From assembly GCF_058153355.1 (NCBI RefSeq), contig NZ_CM177019.1: a stretch of DNA of 64,000 nucleotides. One strand, given 5' to 3'. Of this stretch, positions 54,456 through 56,380 are shown in pieces; position 1 is the first letter of the stretch; the number at the start of each line of letters is the position of its first letter. The notes under the pieces are model-generated. The model was not told where the DNA came from and ran no database searches. It worked only from the letters and a program-made list of their open reading frames with translations. The translations under genes and the position numbers were made by a program.

Positions 54456-55256
54456 TCACGTCCGGCGTATCACTGTTTGATACAACAACCCATCCAGCTC
54501 CCTGGCATCTCCATCCCTGCTATCCGGTAACACTGGTGGAATTTCCCCACGCGCCAGTTCCGCACGAATAAACGCATGTAACAAAGGACGGCGCGGACCA
54601 TATTCCGCTTCTCCCGCGCGCTGTTTACGTTCCAGCAGTTCGTCTATTTCTGCGCGTAACGGCGCATCAAGCTCGCTTCCCGCCAGTAACTCGGCAAAGC
54701 GCATTGGCGGCACGCCTTTTCCCGCTTCAACCCAGCGTACGGCCAGCAGCGGACGCAGCACGTAAAAGTATTTTTTCAGTCGAACTTCATCGCCCTGCAA
54801 ATAGTCGCGGAAGTTTTTCTGCGCCATCGAATAGTAATGCCAGCGTGCACGCAACGAAGAAAACCACATTGGGACCATTGCCTTAAGCGCCGTTATCGTT
54901 TCTTCATCTTGTTGATAGACCACCGGAGAATCCAGCCATTCTATCAGCGTCGGATTCGCGCCTTTCAATAATCCCAGCGCCTTACGCCACTCCCAACCGG
55001 AAACATCTAATTCGTCGTCGATGGGCAGCTCGATAACATCGCGCGGCGCCTCCACCCGCAGATACCATTCCAGCGGGTGAACATACAAAAATCGTACATC
55101 GTAGTCGCTGTCGGGAGAGGCAAATCCCCAGCCGCGGCTGCCTGATTCGCAGGCGTACAGCACTTTCACGCCATAGAGACGTTCTATTTCTTTTAACTGC
55201 TGCGATACCCGTTCGCGCATCGCAGCACTGACTCCATTTAATGGCATGTTACTCAC
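54456..55256 (-). CDS. predicted polymerase-beta-superfamily nucleotidyltransferase
   Basis: 266-aa ORF with NTase signature ESGSRGWGFASPDSDYDV (GS-x11-DxD); GTG start overlaps stop of upstream SPFH gene (alternative ATG 9 nt downstream). Confidence 0.6.
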   Translation of the reverse strand: MSNMPLNGVSAAMRERVSQQLKEIERLYGVKVLYACESGSRGWGFASPDSDYDVRFLYVHPLEWYLRVEAPRDVIELPIDDELDVSGWEWRKALGLLKGANPTLIEWLDSPVVYQQDEETITALKAMVPMWFSSLRARWHYYSMAQKNFRDYLQGDEVRLKKYFYVLRPLLAVRWVEAGKGVPPMRFAELLAGSELDAPLRAEIDELLERKQRAGEAEYGPRRPLLHAFIRAELARGEIPPVLPDSRDGDARELDGLLYQTVIRRT

Positions 55257-56380
55257 CCTTTGATATTAACCAACCCATGCAGAACCTGATCCAGACCGCC
55301 AAATACAGAGATGTTATCGATCCGCTCAGCCACTCTCTCCAGCGTTTCCAGTTCTTTTAAGCGTAACGCCACCGGGTTGTTTTCCATGACTTTAGCGGTA
55401 TTGAGTAACGAACGTGTCGCTGCCGTTTCTTCACGCCGACGAATCACATTCGCCTGCGCAGATTTCTCTGCCTCAACCAGCTGCGCGAGGATATTTTTCA
55501 TATCACCAGGCAGGACGATATCTTTCACCCCTAATGAGGCAATCTCCATACCAAATGGCAACATGCGCGATTTCACCTGTTCGCTGACAACGTCATCAAT
55601 GACCTGTTTATCTTCCAGCAACTCATCCAGCGTACGCGTACCTACCGCTTCACGCAGTGCAAATTGCAATTCCCGATACAAATGATCAATCGGCTTCGTT
55701 AACTGACTAAATGCCAATAACACGTCGCTGTAGCGCCAGTTGGCGGCGAGGTTAATCCGCAGATTGACTTTATCTTTCGTTAAGATTTCTTGCCCGCTGA
55801 CTTCCAGTACCTGCAAGCGGGTGTCAACCACTTCAGCTTCAACCAGATGGTTAATTTTCCAGTACGCAGTCAGTCCCGGCAGTAACAGCGCCTGCGTTTC
55901 ACCATCGATTTTCAGTACACCTACGTGCCAGGCCGGAACCTGCACCGTCAGTATCGCATCGCGGCCTTTAACTGCCCCTTTGCGCCGTGGCTGCAATACC
56001 GCATTCATCACCTCCGTTTGAACCTGGACTTGCTGCGTATTCATCCGCACAAGCGTCAAATCATCCTCTACACGCCAGTACAAACGACGCGTTGATGGCG
56101 GCAGGATCTCCAGCAAAATACCGTCCATATACAACGCCCCGGCTTCAGTCTCCGACAAGTCGGCCACCACGCAATATCTTTCCACCCAATCAGGCTGAAA
56201 GCGGCGCAAATAATCCGCCAGCACGTCGGGAACTTCGCTGCCATCGAGCGTAATCAGCAAGACTTCTGGCGTATTTAACCAGGGTAAAAGATGCTCGCCT
56301 GCAGGCAGCACTTTGTAGTAATCGCCATTTCTGGAGAGTAATGCCAGCTGATCTTTTCTTACGCTTATTTTCTTAATCAT
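55253..56380 (-). CDS. SPFH/band-7 (stomatin/prohibitin-like) domain protein without obvious TM anchor
   Basis: 375-aa ORF; C-terminal SPFH-like region (…LDELLEDKQVIDDVVSEQVKSRMLPFGMEIASLGVKDIVLP…) and coiled-coil-like tail; N-terminal ~150 aa of unknown type. Confidence 0.6.
   Translation of the reverse strand: MIKKISVRKDQLALLSRNGDYYKVLPAGEHLLPWLNTPEVLLITLDGSEVPDVLADYLRRFQPDWVERYCVVADLSETEAGALYMDGILLEILPPSTRRLYWRVEDDLTLVRMNTQQVQVQTEVMNAVLQPRRKGAVKGRDAILTVQVPAWHVGVLKIDGETQALLLPGLTAYWKINHLVEAEVVDTRLQVLEVSGQEILTKDKVNLRINLAANWRYSDVLLAFSQLTKPIDHLYRELQFALREAVGTRTLDELLEDKQVIDDVVSEQVKSRMLPFGMEIASLGVKDIVLPGDMKNILAQLVEAEKSAQANVIRRREETAATRSLLNTAKVMENNPVALRLKELETLERVAERIDNISVFGGLDQVLHGLVNIKG

Follow-up and report, generated by a model that had tools for sequence, protein, structure and literature searches.

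A role of RlaP (the 'RNA ligase-associating Pol-beta' family) in RNA repair was reportedly predicted by Burroughs and Aravind in 2016. A Band-7/SPFH protein encoded beside the RNA ligase RtcB, with a cognate tRNA-like RNA, called b7a-tRNA (for 'band 7-associated tRNA'), was predicted in the same work, according to bioRxiv 10.1101/312249; the participation of such a protein and RNA in bacterial RNA repair has thus stood as a prediction since 2016, and no test of it was found in the literature surveyed. The RlaP enzymes from Pseudomonas fluorescens and P. aeruginosa add one or two nucleoside monophosphates to RNA 3'-OH ends in vitro (PMC12776372), and an SPFH protein of P. aeruginosa, PaFlo8, is encoded within the rtc locus (PMC13086221). 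The locus described here lies in a 64,000-nucleotide stretch of contig NZ_CM177019.1 (NCBI RefSeq assembly GCF_058153355.1), hereafter the window, and comprises, on the minus strand, a structured leader RNA, a gene for an SPFH protein and a gene for a Pol-beta nucleotidyltransferase. A preliminary description had not recognised this gene pair as a described system; that view has to be abandoned, given that the enzyme is RlaP and that Band-7/SPFH beside RtcB with a cognate tRNA-like RNA had already been predicted. The pairing is of a known, computationally predicted RNA-repair kind, one component of which has been characterised biochemically. What appears to be new is a variant lacking both ligase and activator that is maintained in Escherichia, together with two covariation-supported leader RNA domains, distinct from b7a-tRNA and outside Rfam, and an SPFH N-terminal domain made of duplicated beta-units; parts of this may already be contained in the work of Burroughs and Aravind of 2016. 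On balance we favour the view that the locus serves RNA repair as an accessory module, derived by reduction from the 'Band-7 type' rtc operon under RtcR control, and depends in trans on RtcR and RtcB.

The likeness to the Band-7-type operon extends to an orthologous SPFH gene in first place, an orthologous RlaP, the same type of sigma-54 promoter and a structured RNA directly upstream of the SPFH gene; the window differs in lacking RtcB, RtcA, a divergent RtcR and the canonical b7a-tRNA. These relationships were established in a survey of 82 loci from different species that carry an SPFH homologue, drawn from the top 80 among no fewer than 562 genome matches and therefore tilted to close relatives; their neighbours were counted by tblastn with verified seeds, and the identities of RtcB and RtcA were checked with NCBIfam. 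An initial homologue search had returned Escherichia only (98-100% identity, no context) and was followed by a library clustered at 50% identity, in which the full-length SPFH architecture formed 542 clusters at E<1e-30, and by the genome scan. Orthologous SPFH proteins match over their full length with 53-82% identity, and in surveyed loci their genes lie between rtcR and rtcB. RtcB was found near the SPFH gene in 72 of the 82 loci, a divergent upstream RtcR in 67, RlaP downstream in 43 and RtcA in 25, with the usual layout <RtcR SPFH> RtcB> RlaP> (RtcA>). RlaP is thus a less constant partner than RtcB or RtcR, and 38 of the 43 loci that bear it also have RtcB; the physical SPFH-RlaP complex that the preliminary description thought probable is a conjecture. 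The linkage of SPFH to RtcR and RtcB is kept across Gamma- and Betaproteobacteria, and the co-occurrence of SPFH and RlaP in different species, on which the preliminary description had staked its proposal, is far from a chance neighbourhood. Five Enterobacterales loci, from five other genera, show a ligase-free form, <RtcR SPFH> RlaP>. In the window the position of the divergent rtcR is occupied by yjbD.

The nucleotidyltransferase, 266 aa long as first delimited, is a full-length RlaP: the Pfam family PF10127 covers residues 13-259 with model positions 1-248 of 249 (E 2.9e-96). The GS-x11-DSDYD active-site signature noted earlier is present as GSRGWGFASPDSDYD and was retained in all 44 orthologues, where the motif GSRGWGFASxDSDYD is intact; D81 (ATG numbering), at least 95% conserved among them, is a candidate third carboxylate. 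The enzyme is accordingly of the active Pol-beta type, and the earlier suspicion that it stands apart from cGAS/DncV-like enzymes proved justified, RlaP being its sole Pfam assignment. It shares Pfam family and catalytic motif with the Pseudomonas RlaP (PMC12776372), and by this analogy the window enzyme is predicted to add nucleotides to RNA 3' ends. The characterised Pseudomonas RlaP lies between rtcB and rtcA (the surveyed Pseudomonas loci have the order SPFH-RtcB-RlaP-RtcA), whereas the window gene directly follows SPFH, and no RNA ligase, RtcB or other, adjoins it anywhere in the 64 kb. A comparison with PDB sequences, in a set without the crystal structure of the P. fluorescens RlaP, gave no match.

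The location in a variable island beside a toxin gene, and the match of RlaP to a PHROG family (E 7.8e-120) with relatives in phages such as T4, could be taken to indicate anti-phage defence or abortive infection, in which the nucleotidyltransferase would signal or modify a target and the SPFH protein would act as membrane effector. This is very unlikely. A PADLOC scan of all three island proteins gave no match for SPFH or RlaP, on which ground a known defence system was rejected, and no CD-NTase enzyme with a cognate effector, as in the cyclic-oligonucleotide-based antiphage signalling system (CBASS), was found by PADLOC or Pfam. The enzyme is RlaP and no CD-NTase, the SPFH protein is without a membrane segment, and the conserved partners are RNA-repair genes, while the toxin gene never co-occurs with them.

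The SPFH protein carries a Pfam Band_7 domain (PF01145) at residues 147-318 (E 6.6e-24). As had been stated, an N-terminal hydrophobic anchor is missing: the highest Kyte-Doolittle value in a 19-residue window is 1.13, and no transmembrane segment was seen. The N-terminal domain of some 150 aa reported earlier was also borne out as to its extent, with about 145 aa outside Band_7, but it is not unrecognised; the region consists of two extra first SPFH beta-units and arose by duplication of that unit, which added two copies. The fold matches those of the cage-forming stomatin, HflK/C, prohibitin, QmcA and MVP, which have in common with it the SPFH core and a long C-terminal helix. Stomatins are the closest structural matches, the NCBI Prokaryotic Genome Annotation Pipeline (PGAP) names the protein 'slipin family protein', and there are weak NCBIfam matches to HflK/HflC. 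All this would suit a classical slipin with a part in arranging membrane microdomains or in controlling a protease, with RlaP as an unrelated neighbour. Such a role has very little to recommend it and is the least probable of those considered, in view of the missing transmembrane or hairpin anchor, of NCBIfam scores of 30.9 against a cut-off of 134.4 bits and of the conserved linkage to RtcR and RtcB. In addition, no NfeD-family partner gene was found nearby, the island holding besides SPFH only RlaP and a zeta-toxin-like gene.

Longer SPFH variants (about 500-550 aa) were also seen, in Gilliamella (L050-L052, L056, L059), Snodgrassella (L066, L075), Xenorhabdus (L072), Providencia (L028) and P0122, P0125 and P0127. 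They have an additional 140-180 aa at the N-terminus; this added region matches the query in two stretches and probably consists of more copies of the duplicated beta-unit.

The leader, about 290 nucleotides (nt) long, lies outside the interval covered by the preliminary description. Its first domain (R1) has an RNAalifold consensus of 29 pairs, 20 of them with compensatory changes. Pairing is retained in 91% of cells, compared with 34-48% in slid controls, and double changes occur at 26 of the 29 pairs, counts taken on an alignment (A5) that had been fitted to the model. The R1 covariance model reaches 90.7 bits in the window, and it finds a match in about 58 of the 82 loci, nearly always immediately upstream of SPFH and on the same strand. 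Domain 2, specific to Enterobacterales, has 27 pairs in an RNAalifold consensus of 14 leaders from that order, 22 of them with compensatory changes. Single-sequence folding of the whole leader is not significant (z = -1.1), and its structure is brought out only by comparative analysis. Rfam, its YrlA model included, gave no match for R1, domain 2 or the window leader, and ARAGORN found no tRNA in the window, so that an annotated RNA family and a complete tRNA were both ruled out. The T-loop of the window reads CTCGATT where E. coli KN13-4 and all other relatives have TTCGAWT, a single substitution at the equivalent of tRNA T54.

In Pseudomonas and betaproteobacteria one or two aberrant tRNAs were detected directly 3' of R1 by ARAGORN and Rfam. 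These fit the b7a-tRNA attributed to Burroughs and Aravind 2016. A model (R2) built from 29 b7a-tRNAs gave strong matches in 22 further loci; in Enterobacterales its matches were weak and partial. Since R2 is silent in the window, and since R1 and b7a-tRNA stand side by side as distinct elements in betaproteobacteria, R1 is an element separate from b7a-tRNA, and the possibility that the T-arm module of the window is a degenerate b7a-tRNA was rejected. The window leader thus retains R1 with its T-arm and adds the second domain.

Two tandem b7a-tRNA-like genes overlapping by 2-5 nt were observed in Pseudomonas and some beta lineages (L024 7574-7717; L025 7560-7705; L026 7570-7714; L067 7577-7716; L054 1979-2121); many of them have abnormal anticodon loops and are labelled 'tRNA-???' by ARAGORN. 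Betaproteobacterial loci without RtcR (L041 6497-7761; L046 6526-7734; L057 6581-7735; L069 5538-7582, with 11 tRNAs; L078, L083, L084) have 4-11 ordinary-looking tRNA genes and then a b7a-tRNA-like gene ahead of SPFH, and tRNA array, SPFH and RtcB might together be a cassette for 'tRNA replacement and repair' that is mobile.

The place of the leader between promoter and first gene, its tRNA-like T-arm and the failure to detect a separate promoter or terminator would also agree with a purely cis-acting regulator, working by attenuation or by sensing tRNA status, in place of a released RNA partner of SPFH. We consider this unlikely, though not negligibly so; it bears on a single step and can coexist with the RNA-repair module as a whole. 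The structured domains are not followed by a terminator-like hairpin with a U-tract, complete tRNA-like genes (ARAGORN, Rfam) occupy the same position in related loci, and the Y RNAs co-transcribed in the Salmonella rsr-yrlBA-rtcBA operon are released (PMC7790460). That operon, too, joins tRNA-like non-coding RNAs and a scaffold protein in one transcript; scaffold and RNA are there Ro60/Rsr and YrlA, not SPFH.

Upstream of the leader a sigma-54 promoter is predicted. The call is based on position and conservation and not on the pattern by itself, which in 64 kb is not significant (2 found against 1.87 expected): TGGCACG-N4-T-N-GCAA is unchanged in 13 aligned Enterobacterales leaders, and 57 of the 82 loci have a sigma-54 motif 300-780 nt (mostly 300-680) ahead of the SPFH start. 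The other sigma-54-like match of the window is TGGCACGTAAGCTGCA at 14658-14673 (+). At the native E. coli rtcBA promoter, TGGCACGACGGTTGCA, the leader is no longer than about 45 nt, and that operon contains neither SPFH nor RlaP; E. coli/Salmonella rtcBA and the island share the TGGCACG...GCA core, the A/T-rich IHF-like region and the RNA-repair role. An A/T-rich TCAAT-N4/5-TTA was found at a constant distance from -24 in most of 59 anchored promoters, native rtcBA included. Farther upstream stands a candidate enhancer, a repeat box of RtcR activator type. Its composite pattern, derived post hoc, is found a single time in the 64-kb window and in none of 100 shuffles, and an enhancer-like box abuts the rtcR start at the equivalent position in four surveyed loci (L004, L010, L013, L014).

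With the zeta-like gene the island has three genes (about 53350-56774); among 5426 complete E. coli genomes, 1424 carry it. In Enterobacter sp. and Siccibacter a full rtcR/SPFH-rtcB-rlaP operon occupies the identical chromosomal site, in the order pgi-lysC-[rlaP-rtcB-SPFH]-rtcR...yjbD-rluF, from which it follows that the window holds a reduced descendant that has lost rtcB and rtcR. The K-12-type empty site keeps fragments of leader domain 2, and the core of its enhancer-like box is scrambled. One such deletion scar, in the lysC-yjbD intergenic region of E. coli DETEC-P836 (L002, about 700-830), contains a 26-nt piece of domain 2 (window 56447-56472) along with a box copy that has diverged and has other sequence in place of the CGATAAATACA core.

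The absence of the ligase and activator genes, together with the loss of the locus by deletion from some 74% of the complete E. coli genomes, which retain fossil fragments only, raises the question of whether SPFH-RlaP is a decaying remnant, non-functional since the loss of rtcB and rtcR and heading for deletion. Comparison with E. coli KN13-4 makes this improbable. The ratio of nonsynonymous to synonymous substitution rates (dN/dS) amounts to 0.15 in SPFH and 0.087 in RlaP, and the leader shows about 98% identity while dS of RlaP is 0.30; on these grounds the reduced module is regarded as maintained, and the SPFH-RlaP island is under purifying selection. Both open reading frames and the catalytic motif of RlaP are intact. 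The locus has kept its promoter, its IHF-like site and its enhancer-like box, in contrast to the scrambled box core of the empty site, and the ligase-free forms with rtcR in five other genera likewise speak against decay.

In the proposed accessory RNA-repair module, the sigma-54 promoter, the IHF-like site and the retained enhancer-like box would direct a single transcript carrying first the leader RNA, then SPFH, then RlaP. RtcR from another place in the genome (4850 of the 5426 complete E. coli genomes have an rtcR) would activate the promoter as damaged tRNA or rRNA fragments accumulate, on the model of Salmonella, where damaged RNA ends activate RtcR (PMC7790460). The leader may then be processed into a stable RNA, and the anchor-less SPFH protein may oligomerise into a soluble ring or cage acting as a scaffold, probably with the processed leader RNA. 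Where cleaved RNAs have lost one or two nucleotides at their 3' ends, RlaP would put these back, and the unlinked RtcB would reseal the mended RNAs into functional molecules.

Several observations weigh against this proposal. None of rtcR, rtcB and rtcA lies within the 64-kb window, and R2, ARAGORN and Rfam found no canonical b7a-tRNA there. The enhancer region of native E. coli rtcBA has only the GACGATA core in common with the island box, which makes recognition of the latter by E. coli RtcR uncertain. The N-terminal repeats of the SPFH protein carry no net positive charge and so give no hint that the protein binds RNA directly. The locus has been deleted in the majority of E. coli and is therefore dispensable, and deletion of paFlo8 in P. 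aeruginosa gave no phenotype in the reported standard assays.

Tandem beta-repeats ahead of the SPFH/shoulder part, the lack of an anchor and the genetic link to a small structured RNA are features in which the SPFH protein may resemble MVP. By extension, SPFH and the leader-derived RNA might build a soluble vault-like ribonucleoprotein cage that captures damaged tRNAs or rRNA fragments and hands them to RlaP and RtcB, a speculative idea to which we assign a low probability. If the idea were correct, R1 and domain 2 would be new non-coding RNA families, and Escherichia would have in its island a minimal form of natural origin, dependent in trans, with which the particle could be studied experimentally in E. 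coli. The minimal combination of leader RNA, SPFH and RlaP, found in one in four complete E. coli genomes as well as in E. fergusonii, offers in any case a simple genetic system for the role of an SPFH scaffold with its RNA, for RtcR control of a second, unlinked operon and for the cooperation of RlaP and RtcB in vivo.

Table 1. Features of the SPFH-RlaP locus and its neighbour in the window (positions counted from the first nucleotide)
Feature	Position	Strand	Remarks
SPFH/stomatin-like protein without anchor	55253..56380	-	375 aa; beta-unit twice, then SPFH, then long helix
RlaP-family Pol-beta nucleotidyltransferase	54456..55247	-	263 aa from ATG; 266 aa if GTG at 55256
Leader RNA domain 2	56403..56503	-	hairpin 56481-56503 and long interrupted stem-loop 56403-56474
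Leader RNA domain 1 (R1)	56545..56664	-	outer stem around two hairpins, then tRNA-type T-arm
T-arm of R1, tRNA-type	56554-56568	-	CGGGCTCGATTCCCG
Sigma-54 (-24/-12) promoter, predicted	56680..56695	-	TGGCACGCTTCTCGCA; about 315 nt upstream of SPFH start
IHF-like site	56713..56725	-	TTTCATTTGGTTA (cf. WATCAANNNNTTR); between enhancer-like box and promoter; sequence match only
Candidate enhancer, RtcR-type activator box	56782..56806	-	GATAATTGACGATAAATACAGATAA; 87-111 nt upstream of -24
EzeT-like solitary zeta-toxin kinase	53488..54423	+	311 aa, N-terminal extension of about 100 aa; neighbour, outside conserved module

A closer look at the gene junction bears out part of what had been said of it. 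Both open reading frames are on the minus strand where they had been placed (SPFH 55253-56380, nucleotidyltransferase 54456-55256), and from their sequence the two genes are predicted to form a single co-expressed unit, as had been proposed. The GTGA overlap of stop and start is only in part tenable: the sequence GGGTGA does permit a GTG start over the TGA stop, but the ATG at 55247, 9 nt downstream of the GTG, is the likelier start. It is favoured by GGGTGA serving as a Shine-Dalgarno sequence 5 nt upstream, by the RefSeq/PGAP start at the equivalent ATG of an E. coli locus with 98% identity and by the N-termini of RlaP orthologues (M-N-G-V-S...), which match this start. SPFH and rlaP are thus probably separated by a 5-nt spacer, with no overlap. 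Tight junctions recur in orthologues, as TGATG (L011, L012) or TAATG (L015), and genuine 1-nt overlaps occur in Superficieibacter and Hafnia.

The zeta-toxin-like gene on the opposite strand is convergent with rlaP, with 32 nt between the stop codons, and lies 138 nt from lysC; no clear terminator common to it and rlaP was seen. Its product matches Pfam Zeta_toxin at residues 103-284 (E 6.5e-40) and PezT (2p5t, E 5e-31), and no epsilon/PezA antitoxin gene stands beside it. EzeT of E. coli is a published single-chain toxin-antitoxin, a zeta toxin with a cis-acting antitoxin domain; the window gene, a candidate EzeT, fits its description in being a solitary zeta-type kinase with an N-terminal region of about 100 aa on an Escherichia chromosome. 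None of the 82 related loci contains a zeta gene, and outside Escherichia the gene is unlinked to SPFH-RlaP. As it never accompanies SPFH elsewhere, the gene is treated as separate cargo; a role as third component or as RNA 5'-kinase was rejected on the same count and on its PezT/EzeT type, which phosphorylates UDP-N-acetylglucosamine (UNAG kinase).

The PHROG match of RlaP mentioned above is full-length and concerns phrog_14344, and the zeta-like protein matches phrog_25145 (3.6e-177). In E. coli KN13-4 (L003 1-2502) the stop codon of RlaP is directly adjoined by phage tail and DUF4376 genes, and the zeta gene matches elsewhere in the record, which suggests that a prophage has integrated between the convergent RlaP and zeta genes. 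The PHROG matches possibly stem from prophage predictions that overran into the island, in view of this insertion.

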